This document shows, in pieces, positions 2,313 through 13,088 of a DNA stretch of 16,807 bases. The first letter of the stretch is position 1, and each line of letters begins with the position of its first letter. Origin of the DNA: Promethearchaeota archaeon (GTDB lineage: Archaea > Asgardarchaeota > Lokiarchaeia > Sigyniarchaeales > SOKP01); contig RDOE01000071.1 in NCBI GenBank assembly GCA_011364975.1, positions 1 through 16,807 of the forward strand, written 5' to 3'. The translations under genes and the position numbers were made by a program. The notes beneath the pieces were generated by a model. The model did no database searches, had not been told where the DNA came from, and worked only from the letters and a program-made list of their open reading frames with translations.

Positions 2313-4766
2313 ATGGAAAATGATAATCAACTTCCCATTTATAAAAACAATGCTCAACCCATCAACCAAAGAGTTGAAGATCTAATCTCAAGAATGACAC
2401 TTGAAGAAAAAGTAGCTCAATTAGGTTCCAGATATTCAAATGAGTTAATAGATTCGAATGGTTTATCTGAGGAGAAATTAGAGCGCTATTTGAAAAATGG
2501 AATTGGCCAAATTACACGGATAGGGGGGGCATTAAATCTTGTACCTGAGGAAATCCCTAAATACGCTAACGCAATCCAGCATTTTTTATTGGAAAGAACT
2601 CGTTTAGGTATTCCTGCGATAATGCATGAAGAATGTTTATGTGGATATACTTCAAGAGGAGCCACGGTTTTTCCACAAATTATTGGAGTTGCATCAACGT
2701 GGAACCCTAATTTAGTTGAGAAGATGACATCAATCATAAGAACTCAAATGAGAGTTGTTGGAGCTCACCAAGGTCTCTCTCCTGTACTTGATATCGCTCG
2801 TGATCCCCGTTGGGGAAGAACAGAAGAAACCTTTGGGGAGGATCCTTATTTAGTGTCAAAAATGGGGGTAAGTTATGTTAAAGGACTTCAAGGAGATTCT
2901 TTGGAAACTGGAATCATGGCAACCGCAAAACACTTTTTAGGATATGGATATACTCTAGGAGGACGAAATTGGGGCCCCTCATTGATCCCTAAGAGAGAGT
3001 TATTAGAGGTATTTGCCCGTCCATTTGAAGCGGCGATTCAAGAGGGGAAAATTGGTTCAGTTATGAATTCTTATAGTGAAATTGACGGCCTACCATGCGG
3101 ATTTTCACATAAAATATTAACAAAACTTTTACGAGATAAGCTGGGTTTTGATGGATTAGTGGTATCTGACTATGGCACAATTGCTTTGGCCTCAAGATTA
3201 CATGGAATTAGTTCGGATCAAACAAAAGCAGCGATTATGGCCTTAGAGGCTGGTCTTGATGTTGAATTACCAACCACAAGTGGTTACGGAAGGGCGTTTG
3301 TAAGAGCTATAAAAAAAGGGGAAGTAAATGAAGAGCTTGTAAATCGCTCGGTAGCGAGAGTTTTAAAAAAAAAGTTTGAGCTTGGTTTATTTGAAAATCC
3401 ATTTGTGGAAGAGGAAAAAGAATTGATAGAGCAATTTTTTTCTAATCATAAAAACAAAGAATTAGCTCATAGAATTGCTCGAGAATCAATAATTTTATTA
3501 AAAAATGAAGATGGACTGCTACCGTTAAAGAAAACATTAAAATCCATTGGAATAATTGGACCAAATGCTGACAGTGTTCGAAATTTATTTGGAGATTATA
3601 CCTTTTTGAGCCAATTTGAATTAGAAGTAGTTAACATCGCTGGTTATCGCCAAGTTACTAAGGAACAAGATTATTTATTTAAAGAGTTATTAGCAAGTAA
3701 AGATCCTGAAGCATTTGCACGAAAAATTTATAACTCTCAGAGCGTGCTAGAAGCGATAAGGGCGAAAGTTTCATCTACAACAACAGTATTATATACTAAG
3801 GGTTGTGAAATTTTGAGTAATGATAAAAGCGGGTTTAAGGAAGCCATTGATATTGCTAGGGAATCTGAAGTAGTTATTCTGATATTAGGTGAGAAGTCAG
3901 GTTTAGTACAAGATTGTACTACAGGTGAATCGCGAGACAGAACTAATATAGACCTTCCGGGAGTTCAAGAAGACTTAATGAAAGAGATCTATGCTTTAGG
4001 AATACCTATTATATTAGTTTTAATAAACGGAAGACCATTATCAATATCATGGGCGAAAGAGCACATTTCTGCGATAGTAGAAGCATGGCTTCCGGGTGAA
4101 CAAGGTGCCATAGCGATAGCTGAGGTTCTTTTTGGAGATTATAACCCTGGGGGAAAATTACCAATTTCCATTCCAAGACATGTGGGCCAGATACCCATTT
4201 ATCATAATTGTAAACCTACTGGCAATCTTTCTGTTTGGTCTTGGAACTATGTTGAGGAAAATACTACACCACTTTTTCCTTTTGGTTATGGTTTAAGTTA
4301 TACTACTTTTGAGTATAATAATTTGCATATTAACAAATCTGAAGTATCAATTGAGGATTCAATCGAAATTTCGGTAGATTTGAAGAATGTTGGAAGCGTT
4401 CCTGGAGATGAGGTTGTTCAATTATACTTAAAAGATAAAGAAGCTAAGGTCACTCGCCCTTTAGAAGAACTTTTCGGATTTAAAAGGATTAATTTAAAAC
4501 CTGAAGAGAAGATTACTATAACTTTTGAAATTCCAATCAAACAATTAGCATTTTATAATGAAAAAATGGAATATGTTGTAGAACCAGGCTTAATATATGT
4601 CTATATAGGAAGTATCCATAGTAATTTTGATTCCAGACCGTTAAGTTTAGATGAGCTTTTCTCACAAAAAGATGTAAAATTGAAAGGACAGTTTAAAATA
4701 GTTGGAAAACCCGAGAAGGTAATTGGAAAAAAGACTTTTTTTTCTGATGTGAGAGTTAAGCTTTAA
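2313..4766 (+). CDS. Glycoside hydrolase family 3 (BglX-like beta-glucosidase/beta-xylosidase) with C-terminal fibronectin-III-like domain
   Basis: GH3 motifs: MTLEEKVAQL, RLGIP, HEECLCG, ATVFPQ, RDPRWGRTEETFGEDPYL, TAKHF, GLVVSDY (nucleophile Asp), GESRDR, PGGKLPIS, PLFPFGYGLSYTTF, GDEVVQLY. No obvious signal peptide, so probably cytoplasmic. Confidence 0.95.
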   Translation: MENDNQLPIYKNNAQPINQRVEDLISRMTLEEKVAQLGSRYSNELIDSNGLSEEKLERYLKNGIGQITRIGGALNLVPEEIPKYANAIQHFLLERTRLGIPAIMHEECLCGYTSRGATVFPQIIGVASTWNPNLVEKMTSIIRTQMRVVGAHQGLSPVLDIARDPRWGRTEETFGEDPYLVSKMGVSYVKGLQGDSLETGIMATAKHFLGYGYTLGGRNWGPSLIPKRELLEVFARPFEAAIQEGKIGSVMNSYSEIDGLPCGFSHKILTKLLRDKLGFDGLVVSDYGTIALASRLHGISSDQTKAAIMALEAGLDVELPTTSGYGRAFVRAIKKGEVNEELVNRSVARVLKKKFELGLFENPFVEEEKELIEQFFSNHKNKELAHRIARESIILLKNEDGLLPLKKTLKSIGIIGPNADSVRNLFGDYTFLSQFELEVVNIAGYRQVTKEQDYLFKELLASKDPEAFARKIYNSQSVLEAIRAKVSSTTTVLYTKGCEILSNDKSGFKEAIDIARESEVVILILGEKSGLVQDCTTGESRDRTNIDLPGVQEDLMKEIYALGIPIILVLINGRPLSISWAKEHISAIVEAWLPGEQGAIAIAEVLFGDYNPGGKLPISIPRHVGQIPIYHNCKPTGNLSVWSWNYVEENTTPLFPFGYGLSYTTFEYNNLHINKSEVSIEDSIEISVDLKNVGSVPGDEVVQLYLKDKEAKVTRPLEELFGFKRINLKPEEKITITFEIPIKQLAFYNEKMEYVVEPGLIYVYIGSIHSNFDSRPLSLDELFSQKDVKLKGQFKIVGKPEKVIGKKTFFSDVRVKL

Positions 4767-4920: not shown

Positions 4921-5328
4921 ATGACTAAAAAAACTTATATCATAACGATCGATGATCGTGGACGTATTGTCATCCCGAAACAAGCCAGAAATGATTTAGG
5001 AATAACTACAAATTCTCAATTAATGATGGTAAGCGATTCTGAAGTAAAAGAAATGAAAATTTCTCCAATAGGGTTAAAAGGAGAGGGAAACCTTATAAAA
5101 TTAAAAATTACCATGAAAGATATTCCTGGAGCACTAGCAAAACTAGCGACTCTTTTTGGTGATCTTAAATTAAGTATGATGTATAGTGAAGCTGTTATTG
5201 TTGAGAAGGATAAGACCGCAGTGTGGACAGTTATTTCAGAAAGTCCCGAATCTCCTTTAGAGGATCTTGAAAATATTTTAAAGGAAAAGGGAAATGCTAT
5301 AAAAGTTGAATTTTTACCTTTAGAATAA
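4921..5328 (+). CDS. AbrB/MazE/SpoVT-type DNA-binding domain fused to an ACT ligand-binding domain (transcription regulator)
   Basis: N-terminal ITIDDRGRIVIPKQARNDLGI is the swapped-hairpin AbrB signature. LKITMKDIPGALAKLATLFGDLKLSM matches the ACT pattern (DxPGxLxxl). Confidence 0.88.
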   Translation: MTKKTYIITIDDRGRIVIPKQARNDLGITTNSQLMMVSDSEVKEMKISPIGLKGEGNLIKLKITMKDIPGALAKLATLFGDLKLSMMYSEAVIVEKDKTAVWTVISESPESPLEDLENILKEKGNAIKVEFLPLE

Positions 5329-5362: not shown

Positions 5363-6196
5363 ATGGCTAAAAAGAAAAAAAAAGATAAATTGACTGCTGA
5401 GGATATAATTTCAAATTATACCTTAGACTCTGCATTAAAAACATCAAAAACAACTGAATCAACCTTACATAATCTTTTACAAACTGTATCAGAAGACAAA
5501 GGTTTTATAACCCCAAAAGAAGAGGAAGTACGTATTGAGCCTCAATTATCATATGAAACGAAGAGGAAAATAGCGGAAGATTATTTACTCGAAGATAAAC
5601 CTCTTTCTGAAAGAGAACCCGTTGAAGAACGCTCTAAGATTAAAATAACTCCTTCTGAAGAAATTAAGTCTGATATTCAGCAAGATAAGGCTCTTAAAGC
5701 TGGGATTCAATCGGAAGAAAAGCCTAAGTCTGAAGCCCAAACAAATGAGAAGCCTAAAACTGAAATCCAATCAGGAGAAGAACCAGTTATAGCAGAAACC
5801 ATGAAAAAGGAACCCCATTTTTCTAAAAAAGATAGTATCTATGCCAAACTTGCAAAATTTTTTGAAGAATTATTTGAAGGGTATTTAGAACGATACGATC
5901 GTTGGGAATATTCCATTTCTTCAATTCTTTCAATCTTGAGAAAGATGAGAAAAATTACCAAAAAGAATTCAGAAGATTTAGTTCAATCAATTGATAATAT
6001 GTATAAAACTATTCAATTTAACTTAGAAAATTTTAAGTTAAAAAGGGATGAGGTGGAAAGAATTGCCGATGTAGATGTTGAGTCTATGTCTAGCGAATTC
6101 AAGAAAGTGTTAGGATTACTGGAGTTACAAGTTAAAGAATATCAATTTAAACTTTTAACTGATGAATATGTCCGAGAGAATAATCCTATAATGTAA
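5363..6196 (+). CDS. Hypothetical protein: basic N-terminus, charged disordered middle with 10-aa repeats, amphipathic helical C-terminal domain
   Basis: 277-aa ORF, 34 nt after the AbrB-ACT gene and 48 nt before the actin-like gene. Starts MAKKKKKDK. The last ~120 aa have helical/coiled-coil-like hydrophobic periodicity. Confidence 0.8.
   Translation: MAKKKKKDKLTAEDIISNYTLDSALKTSKTTESTLHNLLQTVSEDKGFITPKEEEVRIEPQLSYETKRKIAEDYLLEDKPLSEREPVEERSKIKITPSEEIKSDIQQDKALKAGIQSEEKPKSEAQTNEKPKTEIQSGEEPVIAETMKKEPHFSKKDSIYAKLAKFFEELFEGYLERYDRWEYSISSILSILRKMRKITKKNSEDLVQSIDNMYKTIQFNLENFKLKRDEVERIADVDVESMSSEFKKVLGLLELQVKEYQFKLLTDEYVRENNPIM
5666..5785 (+). repeat. Four degenerate in-frame 30-nt tandem repeats
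   Basis: KSDIQQDKAL / KAGIQSEEKP / KSEAQTNEKP / KTEIQSGEEP. DNA units begin aagtctga, aaagctgg, aagtctga, aaaactga, and two end in aagcct. Confidence 0.7.
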
Positions 6197-6244
6197 ATTA
6201 AATAACTTAATTTCTTTAAATTTAAACAATCTATAATAACTGTT

Positions 6245-7414
6245 ATGTCCCAAACGGAAAATGATAATGTACGTCCATTAATATTAGAATTTGGTACTGA
6301 TACATTTAGAATGGGTTTTGCAGGAGATGATTTCCCCGATATAATAGCACCAAGTATCTATGTCAATATCTCAGATTATTTATTTAATTCAGATATAATA
6401 AATGGTTTGGAAGAGATTTACACCAATCCGATCAAGAGTTCTGAGCTTGTGGGTCATGAAGCTTTAAAGTATCAAAATATACTAAAATTGCATGAATTCA
6501 AGAAAGAAAATAATTATAACATTCTAATGAAATTTTTCATGCATTACTATTTTATGTTAAAAATTCCTCAAGAACTTCAATTTCAACAACCATTGATTAT
6601 ATTAAGTCCATTCCATACCTCTGAAATTGAAAAATCAAAATTGCAGGAAATATTTCTTAATTTATTGAACTTTCCATCTTTAATGTATTTATCAGAATCT
6701 CAAGCTATTCTCTCTACTCTTCAAAAAGCTAGTGGAGTAATAGTGAACATGGGTGAAACATATACTTACATCTCATCAATTTTCCATGGATTTACTAATA
6801 TTATGGCACGTGATTTATTTCCAATCGCCGGAAAAGATCTTACTGATTATTTACTAAGCTTAATTGTAAGTAAAATAGGTTCGAGTAAAAGTATTTATAT
6901 TGATTCTATGATCGCCAAAGAAATTAAAGAAAAATTATCATTATGCGTGTCAAATCCAAAAGAAGAGAAAAGACGAGTAAAAGAGGGATTAACAAAATAT
7001 GATAGAATTGTTGATTTACCAGATGCTACTCAGTTAAAATTGAATTTAGAACGTTTTTTATTGTCCGAACCATTATTTAATCCTAAATTAATTCATATTG
7101 ATTATATTGGGATTGCTGAGGCCGTATCTAAAGTAATAAAGACTTGGGATCGTGAAAATTGGGAATCCTTATTACCAAATATAATACTTTCGGGAGGTAC
7201 AAGCTTAATTCCAGGATTTAATGAACGATTAGAACTTGAATTGCAAAAGTTTTTTTCAGACAAATTAAGGAGTAAAATAAAAGTTATAGCACCATCAGGT
7301 CGGGAAAATATGAGCTGGATCGGCGCATCCATTTTATACTCTAAGGATCAACTGAAAAAAGGTTGGATTGTGAATTCAAATAATAATAATTTAAAATTTT
7401 CATCAGAGGATTAA
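6245..7414 (+). CDS. Divergent actin-related protein (Asgard ARP-like; eukaryotic actin family rather than MreB/FtsA)
   Basis: Collinear with actin: LILEFGTDTFRMGFAGDDFP (cf. [20 protein letters not shown]), LVGHEA (YVGDEA), IAGKDLTDYL (LAGRDLTDYL), EIKEKL (DIKEKL), LPDATQLKLNLERF..EPLFNP (LPDGQVITIGNERF..ETLFQP), IILSGGTSLIPG (VLSGGTTMYPG), IKVIAP..SWIGASIL (IKIIAP..VWIGGSIL). Confidence 0.93.
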   Translation: MSQTENDNVRPLILEFGTDTFRMGFAGDDFPDIIAPSIYVNISDYLFNSDIINGLEEIYTNPIKSSELVGHEALKYQNILKLHEFKKENNYNILMKFFMHYYFMLKIPQELQFQQPLIILSPFHTSEIEKSKLQEIFLNLLNFPSLMYLSESQAILSTLQKASGVIVNMGETYTYISSIFHGFTNIMARDLFPIAGKDLTDYLLSLIVSKIGSSKSIYIDSMIAKEIKEKLSLCVSNPKEEKRRVKEGLTKYDRIVDLPDATQLKLNLERFLLSEPLFNPKLIHIDYIGIAEAVSKVIKTWDRENWESLLPNIILSGGTSLIPGFNERLELELQKFFSDKLRSKIKVIAPSGRENMSWIGASILYSKDQLKKGWIVNSNNNNLKFSSED

Positions 7415-7444
7415 GCTAAATGATCCAGATTGTGAGAATTTAAT

Positions 7445-10048
7445 ATGGAGAGAAGCAAAGTGACAGTAAATTCAAACGTGAAAAAGGATTTTCTCGAAAA
7501 TTTTCAAAATAGAGTAATTCAAGGAAGACGACTTCTTCAAACTGCTAATCATCGTTGGGCAGATAAATTACTTTCAGATTTATATTATGATATTGAAAAA
7601 ACTGAATGGTTAGACATTCAAAAGAAACATCAATTAATAATGATTATAGCAAATTCTTGGTGGATGTATATAAATTCGCTTACTTTAAAGACTGAGGAGG
7701 GTTATAATGTTGATATAATCCGATATATCGATGCTTATAAGCGATTTTTTTCATTTCTAGCAAAATTAGATGATTTTTATCTCTTCAATAATTTCGCTAC
7801 CGAGTTATTAAAAATTTTCATCCAAATGGATGATTTATCTCAATCAGGTATTACTAAATTTATTAACTCGTTTAGCATTAAACTTATTGAACGCCAAGAA
7901 TATATTAAATTATTAGAATTACAGATTGTATTAATGTTTTTAAGAAAGTCAGTTATTCCTCAAGAATATTTTCATCTTTCAATGGAACATCTTGGAAGAA
8001 CAATTTTTAAATTAGAACCCCAAAAACGTGGTTTATTTATTCATACTTTCTTGGAAAATGTAAATTCAAATTATGAATTGATGGAAGATTCAAATGAGTT
8101 TATTATATTTATGCATAAAGTTTTAACTCACAGAATACCGGGTTATTTAAAAGATGAGTTTAGTAATTTACCTAAAATTGTTATAAATAAAAACAATTTT
8201 GATGAAATTTTAGTATCACTTGAAGATCTAATCTTCTACTTGAACAATATTGGAGAATACCAATGGATTATATCGATAATTAAAAATCTATTCTATAAAG
8301 TAAAAAGTTTTAAATCTTACGGTGATGCGGTGACATATATTCGCAAATTCATTTATTTTACAATTTCTAGGAATCGTTTTGAAATAGCATTTGAGATATA
8401 TGATTTTTTAGAAAGTTTATTTATGTATCAGGGAGATCTTGGTTATGATAATATCTTAATTGAATTATGGGTTGAAGCTTGTAAAAAATTTGTAGATATG
8501 AAAGAAAAAAAATATCTACTCCAGTCTCTTGAGAAATTAAATACTCATTTAAAATTACCTCAAAATAATGCTCAAATATATCATTATTTTTATACATCTA
8601 ACTTTCTGTGGATTTTTAAATCACTATTTTTTTCATTAGAGCAAAAAGATTTTTGGAGAATGATGTTTTATCGCTCATTGTATGAAGAAAAAGATTTTGA
8701 GTTAGCAAATAAGATTCTATCCTTTCTAGATAAAAATCTTACAACGCTAATTTTAAATCCAATTGATTTGTACAATGAGACAGAATCTCTAAAAAAAGAT
8801 ATATATTCGTTTGAAAGTAATGATAAATATTTTAAATCTATTCATGAAGGTTTTGTTATCAAACAAATTATCTTTCGAATCAATTCTGAGGGTGTAATAT
8901 CTTACAGGATGATCTCGAGTGATAATGAGATTATAGAAGGAAAAATCGAAGATGAATATTGGAATGATGCCCAAATTTTAGAAATTTATTATGATATTTT
9001 TTCAGATAAGCCAAATAAAAAGTATAATTTAACACTCCATGATTTTGGCAGAATATTATATATTTTTCTTCCAAGAAAAATCCGATCTTTATTCAAACAA
9101 ATTGAAATCAAATCTCTAAGAGTTATTCCTGAAATATATTTTATTTTAGATAGTATGACAGTTCCATTTGAGTTATTATTTGATAATAATTTTTTTCTCT
9201 TAAAATATTCAATAAGTTATATTATCGGTGAGCCTCCATTAGGAGGTATAACATTTGGATATGAGTCCGAAACTAATTTTGAGATTCAAGAGTCATCGAA
9301 TAAATTCAATGTTCTTATTATTGATTGCATAAATTCTACAGGCCCTTTAAAATGGAATGAGGAGTCAAAAAGTAAAGAACTTGTTTTTCCTTTTGAAGCT
9401 GGAGTTAATGAGTTTGAACACATTACTGAATTCTTCAATCAGAGGGAAGAAATAGCTCAAATCGCAATAATTTCTGGCACAAACTCAACAAGGGAGAACA
9501 TTTTGTCGAATATTAATAATGGCTCAAATCATATCATTCATTTTGTTGGTAATATTTTTTATTCAAAATGGAATCCACATGATAGCTTTTTACTTACTAA
9601 TAACAATGAAATCATTACATTTGATGATATAGATTCTGCAATAAGAAATGCAAATACACAAATTCACCCCTTTTTATTTTTCAATTCTCAAATATTTAAT
9701 GTACAAGGGAAAAAGTTAAGAAATGTTATTCGAACATTTGGAGAAATGATTAAAAAATTTGATTATGATATGATTTCAGGGATTATATCTAAAAATTATC
9801 CGATATTTGATAATGAAACAAAAGAAATTGTAGTGAATTTTTATATCAATCTTTTCAATCATAATAGTCAAGGGATATCACTCTTAAAGGCAAGACAAGT
9901 ATGTATGGCAAATAAAATGACAAAAATAATGGAGGATAAGGTACGAGATTTAGAATCAGATCAAGGTACGTTTAGTATAGATCCCCAGAGTTCTTTAGCT
10001 ATTTCAAGTTATATGCTTTTTGGAAAACCTTGGAAAAAATTAGACTAA
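7445..10048 (+). CDS. Large alpha-helical (solenoid-like) protein with a C-terminal CHAT (caspase-HetF-like, clan CD) domain, predicted catalytically inactive
   Basis: CHAT motifs occur in order from ~9040: FGRILYIFLP, IYFILDSMTVPFELL (cf. LPWELL), FFLLKYSISY, VLII, TRENIL, HIIHFVGN (cf. iiHFaGHG), FLFFNSQ (cf. lvflNAC), FYINL, GISLLKARQ, YMLFGKP (cf. fvlyGdP). The first ~450 aa are predicted all-helical. Confidence 0.78.
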   Translation: MERSKVTVNSNVKKDFLENFQNRVIQGRRLLQTANHRWADKLLSDLYYDIEKTEWLDIQKKHQLIMIIANSWWMYINSLTLKTEEGYNVDIIRYIDAYKRFFSFLAKLDDFYLFNNFATELLKIFIQMDDLSQSGITKFINSFSIKLIERQEYIKLLELQIVLMFLRKSVIPQEYFHLSMEHLGRTIFKLEPQKRGLFIHTFLENVNSNYELMEDSNEFIIFMHKVLTHRIPGYLKDEFSNLPKIVINKNNFDEILVSLEDLIFYLNNIGEYQWIISIIKNLFYKVKSFKSYGDAVTYIRKFIYFTISRNRFEIAFEIYDFLESLFMYQGDLGYDNILIELWVEACKKFVDMKEKKYLLQSLEKLNTHLKLPQNNAQIYHYFYTSNFLWIFKSLFFSLEQKDFWRMMFYRSLYEEKDFELANKILSFLDKNLTTLILNPIDLYNETESLKKDIYSFESNDKYFKSIHEGFVIKQIIFRINSEGVISYRMISSDNEIIEGKIEDEYWNDAQILEIYYDIFSDKPNKKYNLTLHDFGRILYIFLPRKIRSLFKQIEIKSLRVIPEIYFILDSMTVPFELLFDNNFFLLKYSISYIIGEPPLGGITFGYESETNFEIQESSNKFNVLIIDCINSTGPLKWNEESKSKELVFPFEAGVNEFEHITEFFNQREEIAQIAIISGTNSTRENILSNINNGSNHIIHFVGNIFYSKWNPHDSFLLTNNNEIITFDDIDSAIRNANTQIHPFLFFNSQIFNVQGKKLRNVIRTFGEMIKKFDYDMISGIISKNYPIFDNETKEIVVNFYINLFNHNSQGISLLKARQVCMANKMTKIMEDKVRDLESDQGTFSIDPQSSLAISSYMLFGKPWKKLD

Positions 10049-10152
10049 ATCTAAAAATTATAATCATTTACAAAACTTAGTGAATCACATAAACTTAATT
10101 AAAATTAATCATATTAAAAACTAAAATATATAACTAATGATGTGAATTTGTT

Positions 10153-10692
10153 TTGTCGGAAAGAATTATTGAACTTCGCGTTGAAAATACAAGGCTTAAG
10201 GAGCAGGTTCAGGACTTAGAGAACAAAGTTCTCTCATTAGTGGGTATGGTAAATTTAGAATCTTCTGAAGGGGTAGATGGAAAAAAAATAATAAATGACC
10301 GATTACTTCGTTTAATTACCACCACATCTTCCCAATTGAATATTGTCGCTCCAAGAATTGACTTATTTTATGCCAATGAACTTAAAAGAGTTGTAAAAAA
10401 GGGAATTCCTGTTTTAATTATTATGAATGACCGAGGAAACATTCCAAAGGAATTTCAAGAAGTATTTGATGAATTAAAACTGGTTTCAGGTATTAGTATT
10501 GTTAGTAATCCTAATGTTAGATATTTATTAGTATTTAATTCAGAAGAAGCAATTTACTCAGGAGGATCGTTAGTAAAAGATGAACTGGAAAAGTCGATTC
10601 TAATCGTAACCACTGTAAGAGAAAGCGCAAAACTTAGAAAGATTGCTGAGATTTTTACCATGATGCTCCCATCTTTCATGAGACCAAAATAA
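10153..10692 (+). CDS. N-terminal coiled coil + phospholipase D/TrmB-like fold lacking the HKD motif
   Basis: TTG start. IIELRVENTRLKEQVQDLENKV shows heptads. SQLNIVAPRID..ELKRVVKKGIPVLIIMND matches the PLDc_2/TrmB N-half pattern. VRYLLVFNSEEAIYSGGSL aligns with HxKxxxxD...aivGSaNl with H, K and D replaced. Confidence 0.7.
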   Translation: MSERIIELRVENTRLKEQVQDLENKVLSLVGMVNLESSEGVDGKKIINDRLLRLITTTSSQLNIVAPRIDLFYANELKRVVKKGIPVLIIMNDRGNIPKEFQEVFDELKLVSGISIVSNPNVRYLLVFNSEEAIYSGGSLVKDELEKSILIVTTVRESAKLRKIAEIFTMMLPSFMRPK

Positions 10693-10773: not shown

Positions 10774-10914
10774 TTGAAGAAAAACAAAACTCTGAAAGAA
10801 CCTCAGAAAAAAGAAGGAAATGTTTATAATTTAACAGATACTGAAATGAAATTAAATGAGAGTTTTGATTGGGATTTCATTTTTGATAGAGAATGGTCGC
10901 GAACAAAAAAGTAA
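10774..10914 (+). CDS. Putative 46-aa small protein (not in the ORF track)
   Basis: TTG at 10774, preceded by AAAAGGA, reads MKKNKTLKEPQKKEGNVYNLTDTEMKLNESFDWDFIFDREWSRTKK* (TAA 10912-10914). It fills most of the 200-nt gap and overlaps the MTase start by 22 nt. Confidence 0.4.
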   Translation: MKKNKTLKEPQKKEGNVYNLTDTEMKLNESFDWDFIFDREWSRTKK

Positions 10915-13088
10915 TTGATTCGAGAGATATTTCGGATTTATTTGGGCTTAATTCCAAAATATTTCGGGATCTTTATGAATTTTTAGAGAATCAATCTAAT
11001 ATTGAAGATTTAGAATCTCAAAAAAGATTTAATAGATGGAAATCAACTTTTTTTTCCATTTATGGTGAGGATGTAGACAAACCACTTTTCCTTAAGCATA
11101 GTTATTTTATTTTATTGTTAAGAGTAATAACTAACATAAAGTTTGGAGGAGAAATCACTGATGAGGTTCGTAAAAATAAAGGTCATAACGATAAATTTGA
11201 TGTAAATCAACTATTTTTTCCCGAAGTTGAAAATTTCTTTCTTCCCGAGATCTCAAAAGAGTTATTTAATAAAATTGCATCAATTTTAAATGATTCTCTC
11301 TTTGCGCATGAAGATTTATTTCAAAGGATATATCAACAAATCTTCTTAATAATTACTAGGCATAAAATAGGGGAATTTTATACACCATCACCTCTTGTCA
11401 AAAAAATGTTAGAGAAGACTTATAAATTTGGTTTAAAGACATTAGATCCAGCTTGTGGGTCAGGAAGTTTTATAATTGAGATTATTAACAAAATTTTAAA
11501 TTCAGAATTATCAAATTCTTTAAAAGTTGAAGCTATAGAAAAAGTATATGGCTTTGATATCAATCCACTAGCTACTTTAACTACAAAAGTAAATATTGTG
11601 TTATTGTTAGAAAAATTTGCCAATAAGTTAGAATTATTTCCTGCTATTCATATTCATAACATAGATGGGCTTTTTCCAGAAAATTCTAAGAAAGTATCTC
11701 TCTTAAAAATTAATGAAATTTATAATTCTTTTGATTTAGTAATTGGAAATCCTCCTTGGTTAACTTATAAAGATTTAGTTAGTAAAGAGCACCAAACTCA
11801 GGTTCGCTTATTAGCGGAAGAACTAGACATCAAACCACCAAGCCAATATATTACTCATATAGAACTTGGGTCTATATTTTTTTATGCATCAGCTATAAAG
11901 TATTTAAAGATAAATGGCGTTATTTTTTTTGTTATTACTAAAAGCATATTAAATGGAGATCATTGTTATAAATTTCGTGCTTTTACAATATTTAAAAATA
12001 TAGAAATTTGGGATTTTCCAGAAAGTTACTTTTTTAACGTTCAACATATCTGTTTAAAAGCACAATATATTGGAAAAAGTAACCAAATTACTATTCATGA
12101 TAAATATCCCATTAAGACGACTATTGTTGATAACAGTTTTGAGGATAAAAAGATTTTATACTATTCTAGTTTAAAATTAGAAGAAAAAGGTGCCAAAATT
12201 ATTTTACCTGAAAGTGAGTTACGATTAATTAATTCATTATCAGAAAGTGATTATAAAAGAAAATTTTTTCAAGGGGCAACCTTAGTCCCTAAAACATTGA
12301 TATATTTTAAAGTGGAACAAAAATTAAATAATATTTTAATAATATCTTCTGATCCGGAAATACTTAAGCGGGCAAAAAAGAAATGGAAATTCCAATTAAA
12401 TAATCAGAAGATTGAGGACAAATTCTCTTTTAAAACTTTTTTAAATCGCGATATGGTTCCTTTTTATATCAAGCAGTATAAACGTGTTTTTTTACCTATA
12501 AACGCTCAATATGAACTTGATAATGCTTTTTTAAAAGAAAATCCCCTTGCGTTAGAATTTTATAATAAAATAAACAGATTATATCAAGAAAATAAAAAGC
12601 AAACTAGTAAAATAAATACACTTTTTGCGAACTTAAATTATTGGAATAAATTAACTAAGCAAAAAGTAAATAAAGCCTATATTGTGACTTATAATGCTAG
12701 TGGTTCCAATTTAAAAGCTGCTGTTATTGATAATTCGCAAGAAAACCTTATAATTAGTTCTGAGGACTATTACTATTCTACAGATTCCATTAACGAGGCA
12801 TCCTATTTATCCGCTGTTTTAAACACACCTCTTCTTTCTAAATATATGAAGTTAATAAAATCAAGTAGACATATTCACAAAAGACCTTTTTCTTTTCCAA
12901 TCCCTGCTTTTGATAAGGAGAATCCTATCCATAGAAAGCTAGCAAATAAAGGTCAAAAATATTATTCCGTGGTTCAAGATTTAGTAGCTAATAATCAAAA
13001 CATATCCTCTGAAAAAGTAAGAATTTTTATTCATCAGAAACTAACAAAATTGAATGAGTTAGTAAAAGATCTTATGTTTAAACTTTAA
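10893..13088 (+). CDS. N6-adenine DNA methyltransferase, gamma class (Eco57I/type IIG-like MTase + target-recognition region), no visible nuclease domain
   Basis: Motif X GEFYTP, motif I LDPACGSGSF, motif II YGFDINPLA, motif IV DLVIGNPPW. The C-terminal region is TRD-like, with EASYLSAVLNT and RHIHKRPF. Confidence 0.88.
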   Translation: MVANKKVIDSRDISDLFGLNSKIFRDLYEFLENQSNIEDLESQKRFNRWKSTFFSIYGEDVDKPLFLKHSYFILLLRVITNIKFGGEITDEVRKNKGHNDKFDVNQLFFPEVENFFLPEISKELFNKIASILNDSLFAHEDLFQRIYQQIFLIITRHKIGEFYTPSPLVKKMLEKTYKFGLKTLDPACGSGSFIIEIINKILNSELSNSLKVEAIEKVYGFDINPLATLTTKVNIVLLLEKFANKLELFPAIHIHNIDGLFPENSKKVSLLKINEIYNSFDLVIGNPPWLTYKDLVSKEHQTQVRLLAEELDIKPPSQYITHIELGSIFFYASAIKYLKINGVIFFVITKSILNGDHCYKFRAFTIFKNIEIWDFPESYFFNVQHICLKAQYIGKSNQITIHDKYPIKTTIVDNSFEDKKILYYSSLKLEEKGAKIILPESELRLINSLSESDYKRKFFQGATLVPKTLIYFKVEQKLNNILIISSDPEILKRAKKKWKFQLNNQKIEDKFSFKTFLNRDMVPFYIKQYKRVFLPINAQYELDNAFLKENPLALEFYNKINRLYQENKKQTSKINTLFANLNYWNKLTKQKVNKAYIVTYNASGSNLKAAVIDNSQENLIISSEDYYYSTDSINEASYLSAVLNTPLLSKYMKLIKSSRHIHKRPFSFPIPAFDKENPIHRKLANKGQKYYSVVQDLVANNQNISSEKVRIFIHQKLTKLNELVKDLMFKL

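Follow-up and report, generated by a model that had tools for sequence, protein, structure and literature searches.

A CHAT-domain protein with a replaced His-Cys dyad, encoded next to an actin-related protein in one order of Asgard archaea

The pseudo-CHAT gene and its catalytic columns

The window analysed here, by which we mean the whole 16,807-nucleotide (nt) stretch of contig RDOE01000071.1 from a Promethearchaeota archaeon of the class Lokiarchaeia, carries a gene for a large protein that joins a helical solenoid to a CHAT domain in which both residues of the catalytic His-Cys dyad are replaced. This gene, called pseudo-CHAT below, lies at 7445..10048 on the plus strand and has an intact frame of 867 amino acids (aa) that begins with ATG. 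It starts 30 bases downstream of a gene for a divergent actin-related protein (ARP; 389 aa, 6245..7414, plus strand), and the two are flanked by orf277 and orf179. Together these four genes, in the order orf277, ARP, pseudo-CHAT and orf179, make up a module that is specific to one Asgard order (according to the record titles, Lokiarchaeia/Promethearchaeota). The window is rich in A and T (25-42% G+C) with most of its long open reading frames (ORFs) on the plus strand, and the stretch at 5363-10692 was present in 20 DNA runs from 7 studies, with no RNA run listed as containing it.

An earlier note on this DNA had singled out HFVGN at 9539-9553 and FFNSQ at 9677-9691, within an unbroken frame of 867 codons, as CHAT motifs with exchanged catalytic residues, and retranslation of the sequence bears this out. 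Bases 9527-9565 translate to NHIIHFVGNIFYS and bases 9665-9703 to HPFLFFNSQIFNV. The first motif ends with the codon for Asn703 (9551..9553, plus strand), which stands in the column of the catalytic His, and the second with the codon for Gln749 (9689..9691, plus strand), which stands in the column of the catalytic Cys.

In Pfam, the CHAT family (PF12770) matched residues 562-729 with an E value of 5.4e-5 and a score of 23.2 bits, the curated cut-off being 24 bits, and the match spans profile positions 25-182 of 289, including the His region and ending before the Cys region. We searched a profile made from 37 pseudo-CHAT orthologues (alignment A1, mean column identity of 73%) against 1.84 billion representative proteins and obtained 116 proteins at an E value of 0.001 or below. 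Three groups could be told apart among them: relatives of full length (830-911 aa), found down to an E value of 1.5e-19; numerous fragments; and proteins of other architectures, which begin at 7e-14 and become weaker from there. A Pfam scan of 36 of the 116 proteins found a strong CHAT domain in all 20 of those with another architecture (E values of 3.4e-22 to 1e-52), fused to TPR, LRR-Roc, receiver or ACT domains. Among the 16 family relatives in the same scan, 8 matched PF12770 at an E value of 0.01 or below and 4 reached the cut-off (P0137 with 38.2 bits, P0136 with 29.9, P0134 with 26.2 and P0165 with 24.0). When 17 family members were aligned over their C-terminal 348 residues, profile to profile (hhalign), with the 20 bona fide CHAT domains, the probability was 99.9% and the E value 2.5e-33 over 276 aligned columns, and the homology to CHAT therefore holds although the Pfam cut-off was narrowly missed. 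The family's own profile was the query that retrieved the 20 reference domains, which therefore represent the nearest CHAT domains and not a random sample. The nearest active relative is P0170 (451 aa, E value of 7.2e-14), a short protein whose CHAT domain is followed by a C-terminal ACT domain; ACT is also found in the AbrB/ACT protein encoded in the conserved neighbourhood of the module (window 4921-5328), which may be a coincidence. A search of PDB sequences with the family profile gave only a chance match (eS24 at an E value of 0.076), NCBIfam contained no family matching pseudo-CHAT, and Peptidase_C50 (PF03568) gave no match to pseudo-CHAT at an E value of 0.1 or below. Weak C50 matches were seen in three active CHAT relatives among the 36 scanned proteins.

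The hhalign pairing sets IIHFVGN under iIHyAGH and FLFFNSQ under LvflnaC, which identifies N703 with the column of the catalytic His and Q749 with that of the catalytic Cys. Across the 20 reference domains the His column holds His in 19 and the Cys column holds Cys in 19. The two deviations are a Gln in the His column of P0198, a protein of 489 aa with a receiver and a CHAT domain, and one Ser in the Cys column, and they indicate that dead CHAT domains arise elsewhere too. Loss of the dyad as such already occurs sporadically, whereas the literature searched gave no record of the family itself, of its restriction to one Asgard order or of its pairing with an ARP.

Conservation was assessed in the 120 best of 260 homologues found at an E value of 1e-3 or below (59-85% identical) and in 15 distant full-length relatives; fragments of less than 800 aa were left out, as was P0137 (715 aa), which ends before the Cys region. 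Position 703 is Asn in all 120 close orthologues and in 11 of the distant relatives, the remaining four having Tyr (two), Ser and Thr. At position 749, Gln is present in 119 close orthologues (Pro in the other one), and the distant relatives have Gln in 5 cases, Arg in 8 and Lys and Leu in one each. Neither column is ever His or Cys in the 135 sequences, and no other His or Cys conserved family-wide was found in this set. An alternative dyad through His699, which the earlier note had named as a possible objection, was looked for and rejected: position 699 is His in only 69 close orthologues (Val in 29, Ile in 22) and in 8 of the 15 distant ones, and no Cys is conserved throughout the family, Cys820 being present in 113 close orthologues and in none of the distant relatives. 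That the frame shows replacement and not decay is likewise upheld by the constancy of N703 (120/120) and Q749 (119/120) among the close orthologues. Judged from these alignments, the loss of the dyad is old, fixed and under long purifying selection, and with Asn and Gln in place of His and Cys no cysteine-protease chemistry is possible. Five residues shared with active CHAT domains (P711, S714, G810, A816 and G860) are kept in at least 13 of the 15 distant relatives and in at least 90% of sequences overall, and a family-specific trio, N630, P634 and W637, is kept in all 15 distant relatives and in at least 90% of the 135 sequences.

The AlphaFold2 model, built on alignment A1, has a mean predicted local confidence (pLDDT) of 79.9 and a predicted template-modelling score (pTM) of 0.60, with pLDDT values below 50 only at residues 1-7, 458-461 and 575-617. 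Three parts, all on the plus strand, can be recognised. The N-terminal part is a TPR-like alpha-solenoid of about 24 helices according to DSSP (residues ~10-452, 7472..8800), and Pfam detected no TPR repeat in the protein. It is followed by a middle beta/alpha domain (residues ~472-552, 8858..9100) with strands at 472-479, 484-491 and 496-505 and helices at 509-552, and by the CHAT domain with its caspase-hemoglobinase fold (residues ~560-867, 9122..10045), in which the loop at 575-617 is of low confidence. A family-specific insertion (9332..9355, plus strand) after the first strand of the caspase fold carries N630, P634 and W637; the 17-residue stretch with this trio has no counterpart in the CHAT template of the hhalign comparison, and the model has a hairpin at 635-646, after the first strand.

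Foldseek against the PDB ranked TPR-CHAT/Csx29 chains first (7zoq_A with an E value of 1.4e-8; also 7y8t_B and 7xsr_C, full-length), followed by the anti-sigma factor DdvA, SAVED-CHAT and separases (human separase 9hms_C, E value of 1.8e-5), and also matched TPR proteins such as LGN/Pins and Rap/NprR. The template-modelling (TM) scores of these matches are low (0.13-0.19) because the domain orientations differ. With VIA-align, the best match was SAVED-CHAT 8tl0_C (Z of 16.9, root-mean-square deviation of 3.0 over 183 residues, model range 615-867); DdvA (8rw5/8rot) gave Z values of 14.4-14.7 over the model range 283-860, and metacaspase-4 and caspase-7 gave 13.6 and 13.3 over model residues ~615-867. 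The caspase-hemoglobinase fold is thus present in the model (Z of 13.3-16.9) and, together with the hhalign probability and the Pfam match just below the cut-off, confirms the C-terminal part as CHAT. The resemblance in layout to TPR-CHAT/Csx29 and separase, which had been proposed from the sequence, was recovered by Foldseek and extends to DdvA.

The actin-related protein and the four-gene module

The protein encoded immediately upstream of pseudo-CHAT matches Pfam Actin with an E value of 2.3e-52, and its best PDB sequence matches are actins at around 1e-37. Of the three actin-family matches in its own genome it ranks last, the best having an E value of 4.4e-87. Divergent Asgard actin homologues of this kind are termed ARPs in the literature (PMC9834061). 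In comparison with yeast actin, the phosphate-binding loops of the ARP read EFGTD for DNGSG and NMGET for DSGDG, and its nucleotide hydrolysis (ATPase activity) may therefore be altered.

The window proteins were compared by tblastn with 80 related loci, in which some of the misses are due to contig ends. A match to the ARP was found in 79 loci, adjoining pseudo-CHAT. Matches to orf277 were found in 77 loci, to the AbrB/ACT protein in 71, to orf179 in 70, to a methyltransferase in 69, to a vWA protein in 58 and to a DEAD-box helicase in 42, and the gene order of the window is retained in nearly all of the 80 loci. The order orf277, ARP, pseudo-CHAT, orf179 is also found in all five loci examined from the order's other families, in which identity to the counterpart in the window is down to 22-26% for the CHAT-like protein and 30-33% for the ARP. 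By the ORF calls in 21 loci, the distance from the ARP stop to the pseudo-CHAT start is mostly between a few and ~45 nt. In L087 and L089 the end of the ARP gene reaches 4 nt into pseudo-CHAT, and the longer apparent overlap in L086 is contingent on the start codon chosen.

The second large family of the order has orf179 in 12 of its 14 genomes versus pseudo-CHAT in 7 of 14, a difference caused by two genera (five genomes) that are without pseudo-CHAT. A genome-wide search of these five genomes with a profile that included distant members, made without an internal positive control, found no pseudo-CHAT; the narrower A1 profile had detected distant pseudo-CHATs in sister genera with E values of 1e-17 to 1e-49. 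The best match of the five genomes to the ARP profile scored 187-196 bits, which is on a par with yeast actin (193.8 bits) and with the second-best actin of module-bearing genomes (189-196 bits). Module ARPs score 453-481 bits, values that are inflated since these proteins are part of the ARP model. With neither a pseudo-CHAT nor a module-level ARP score in the five genomes, the pair is present or absent together, and in the orf179 loci of two of them (L090 in G135 and L091 in G132) orf277 adjoins orf179 with nothing between. As read from these sequences, ARP and pseudo-CHAT are gained or lost as a unit inside a persisting orf277/orf179 pair. By this coupling the two genes are obligate genomic partners, which strongly suggests that their products work together and from which we infer a physical contact between them. 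Complex prediction for the ARP with residues 260-867 of pseudo-CHAT (A2, A3), run without controls, scored 0.01 and 0.00, where the mark is 0.32, and speaks neither for nor against such a contact.

The two outer genes of the module differ in how much their products reveal. The first, orf277 (5363..6196, plus strand), encodes a protein with a conserved basic start (MAKKKKK), a disordered linker and a conserved C-terminal helical domain of ~120 aa (alignment A5, 17 orthologues), and the linker has one conserved short motif (PQLSYExKKKIAEDY-like) and, in some lineages, proline runs. Searches with orf277 in Pfam, NCBIfam and the PDB sequences yielded nothing noteworthy, and its C-terminal part had no usable match in the protein atlas. 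The layout loosely recalls that of recruiting or nucleation-promoting factors. The last gene, orf179 (10153..10692, plus strand), encodes an N-terminal coiled coil and a domain like that of phospholipase D (PLD), modelled by AlphaFold2 with a pLDDT of 81.4. Foldseek matched this model to NucT (6ehi_A, E value of 4.5e-7, TM-scores of 0.65/0.73) and also to Zucchini, TrmBL2 and FAM83, and in a profile search against the PDB NucT was matched at an E value of 0.031. In alignment A4 a segment N-V-R/K-Y-L-L appears, by eye, to replace the H-x-K motif, the HKD signature of PLD enzymes. The Asn at the position expected for the HKD histidine suggests that orf179 may be a second retired enzyme of the module. 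Weak orf179 homologues without the module are found in other orders of the class (L092-L094).

The record titles of nearly all relatives read Promethearchaeota or Lokiarchaeota, and 102 species genomes of the genome collection encode a relative. With the A1 profile, matches were found in 131 of 400 genomes of the phylum. The window's own family accounts for 117 of these, out of 134 genomes searched; elsewhere in its order, one family has a match in 1 of 1 genome and another in 7 of 14, and two further families of the class have weak matches only, to the CHAT region alone; the remaining 249 genomes of the 400-genome set gave no match. Most of the full-length matches listed for the 131 positive genomes have no internal stop, the few exceptions being in G191, G164 and G168. 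A contig titled as a Nanopelagicaceae bacterium (L013, DATKTW010000028.1) has the complete Lokiarchaeal module at 69% identity and is probably mis-binned or mislabelled. Close orthologues (55-67% identity) also occur in several records titled Hod-, Hermod-, Thor- or Odinarchaeota.

The methyltransferase (window 10893-13088, plus strand) is an N6-adenine DNA methyltransferase of 731 aa of the type IIG/Eco57I/MmeI kind. Restriction-modification genes do not usually show such synteny (69 of 80 loci), and this one may be an orphan methylase with a housekeeping role. The GH3 glycosidase gene (window 2313-4766, plus strand), which is located between the vWA and AbrB/ACT genes, was found in only 7 of the 80 loci at 33-37% identity, and it resembles a variable insert among neighbours that otherwise stay in place.

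Possible roles of the pseudo-CHAT protein

We think it rather probable that pseudo-CHAT is a permanently inactivated solenoid-plus-CHAT protein that serves as a non-catalytic scaffold working with the ARP. The former substrate cleft would be retained as a peptide-binding site that holds its ligand and does not cut it. This cleft would be lined by N703, D/N747 and Q/R749 and by the hairpin with N630, P634 and W637; the loop after the first strand, which lines the S1 pocket in caspases, would bring the hairpin beside the former active site. The solenoid would provide a second docking surface, and cleft and solenoid together could scaffold an ARP-containing complex, possibly through binding to the ARP itself or to the linear motif conserved in orf277. 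In that case all four proteins of the module would act together.

Several points weigh against this picture. The putative clustering of N630, W637, N703 and Q749 relies on the general topology of caspase folds. Q749 is not kept outside the core clade, where Arg is the commonest residue among the distant relatives, and since the position varies there the cleft chemistry differs between lineages; moreover, a Cys stands one position earlier, at 748, in 2 of the 15 distant and 3 of the 120 close sequences. Gene adjacency indicates functional linkage and not binding, and the inflation of the ARP scores mentioned above bears on the argument from joint loss. Peptide binding, contact with the ARP and a cytoskeletal effect are what we infer and not what was observed.

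A more specific version of the scaffold, which is conceivable and in our view doubtful, is that the Lokiactin cytoskeleton is regulated, for instance through nucleation, capping or anchoring, by a complex peculiar to Lokiarchaeales whose core consists of the ARP and the dead CHAT protein. In such a complex orf277, with its basic N-terminus, proline-rich linker and helical domain, might act like a nucleation-promoting or recruiting factor, and the coiled-coil pseudo-PLD protein orf179 might be a dimerising anchor. If true, this would be an independent archaeal solution to an Arp2/3- or dynactin-type problem, built from two retired enzymes.

The alternative that survives best, which we regard as possible if on the unlikely side, is that pseudo-CHAT is an independent adaptor or sensor that binds a ligand, a nucleic acid or a protein via its solenoid and is linked to the ARP by co-regulation, with no contact between the two. 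Adjacency and co-loss prove a shared pathway and not contact, and solenoid-CHAT proteins such as Csx29 and DdvA (for the latter, PMC11506125) act as signal-controlled modules. The alternative is harder to reconcile with the 4-nt overlap in two lineages and the gaps of a few nucleotides in several others, and with the position of a two-gene unit inside a larger conserved pair, a pattern that is typical of subunits made together.

It is improbable that pseudo-CHAT still works as a protease, or as some other hydrolase, by means of catalytic residues outside the canonical dyad. Catalytic residues have sometimes migrated in pseudo-enzymes (PMC10211241), and candidates could be seen in the Cys748 of a few sequences and in the nearly invariant S714. 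However, no family-specific His, Cys or other nucleophile is conserved in the 135 sequences, H699 is replaced by Ile or Val in 51 of the 120 close orthologues, and S714, like P711, looks structural because the consensus of active CHAT domains contains it too.

A role in anti-virus defence has just as little to commend it. CHAT domains, PLD-like nucleases and type IIG-like methyltransferases are common in defence islands, the methyltransferase downstream of the module matches the PADLOC model REase_MTase_IIG with an E value of 1e-30, and orf179 has a PLD/NucT-like fold. Yet none of the four module proteins has a PADLOC match better than an E value of 0.003: pseudo-CHAT and the ARP have no match at all, and those of orf277 and orf179 are at chance level (0.003-0.0045). 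The module is found in 117 of the 134 genomes of its family, in the same place and with a single match in most, and it diverges along with the genomes, unlike defence genes, which are patchy and mobile. The catalytic residues are, in addition, missing in the CHAT domain and, as judged by eye, in the PLD-like domain. On the PADLOC result and the synteny data we reject the reading as a defence island.

Least probable of all is a role in controlling an active paralogue with a CHAT or caspase domain, as a regulator, which the earlier note had proposed, or as a decoy, in the way c-FLIP acts on caspase-8. Animal pseudo-caspases that act on active paralogues are the precedent for such a role. In the genome of the window, which is 99.25% complete with 6% contamination, the only CHAT match is the gene's own and no Peptidase_C14 match was found; with no active paralogue recognised by PF12770 or PF00656, the proposal is largely refuted here. 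Of the earlier reading, then, the pseudo-protease stands and the regulator of an active paralogue does not.

Asgard archaea have several actin-related proteins, and published work on cultured strains centres on Lokiactin (PMC9834061, PMC13716822). With a tightly coupled and conserved partner, one of these ARPs now has a concrete setting of four genes that can be tested. The family is also a clear and ancient case of a prokaryotic caspase-fold pseudo-protease, in the archaeal lineage closest to eukaryotes. We found no account of the family or of its pairing with an ARP in the full-text literature, and the supplement tables of Asgard genome papers could list the family.

Comparison with known systems

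Enzymatic activity is ascribed to the solved structures of solenoid-CHAT type that come nearest to pseudo-CHAT. The closest likeness in architecture is to TPR-CHAT/Csx29 of the type III-E CRISPR system (Craspase), which likewise has a helical-repeat N-terminal half and a CHAT domain in a single chain. Csx29, described as an RNA-activated protease, is an active His-Cys protease bound to Cas7-11, whereas the dyad is replaced by Asn and Gln in pseudo-CHAT and its partner gene encodes an ARP. No Cas7-11 or other type III-E effector domain was found when the 11 ORFs of the window were searched against Pfam, where the sole Cas-named match was a weak one to a Cas3-like helicase C-terminal domain (E value of 0.0094) in the DEAD-box helicase. 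The anti-sigma factor DdvA, also a TPR-CHAT protein, shares the combination of solenoid and CHAT domain. DdvA retains H862 and C907, is membrane-anchored and is paired with an ECF sigma factor (PMC11506125); pseudo-CHAT, unlike DdvA, is without the catalytic dyad. For the CHAT domain taken by itself, the best match is SAVED-CHAT (8tl0), a CBASS-type effector whose structure entry is titled as an activated protease filament. Unlike SAVED-CHAT, pseudo-CHAT has no SAVED sensor domain and no match to a defence model.

Separase (peptidase C50) consists of a large helical solenoid and domains of the caspase fold, among them a non-catalytic pseudo-protease domain and an active one. Pseudo-CHAT resembles it in the layout of solenoid and caspase fold and differs from it in having no active protease domain and no Peptidase_C50 match, and there is no sign that separase is a nearer relation of the family than the CHAT domains of prokaryotes are. 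The last comparison is with pseudo-enzymes that act as binding proteins. In the c-FLIP-type pseudo-caspases and the FAM83-type pseudo-PLD scaffolds, which share no sequence kinship with the module proteins beyond the fold, an enzyme fold is kept as a binding module. Pseudo-CHAT differs from c-FLIP, which acts on an active paralogue, in that none was found in its own genome, and it resembles both types in that a former enzyme fold would have been retained to bind.

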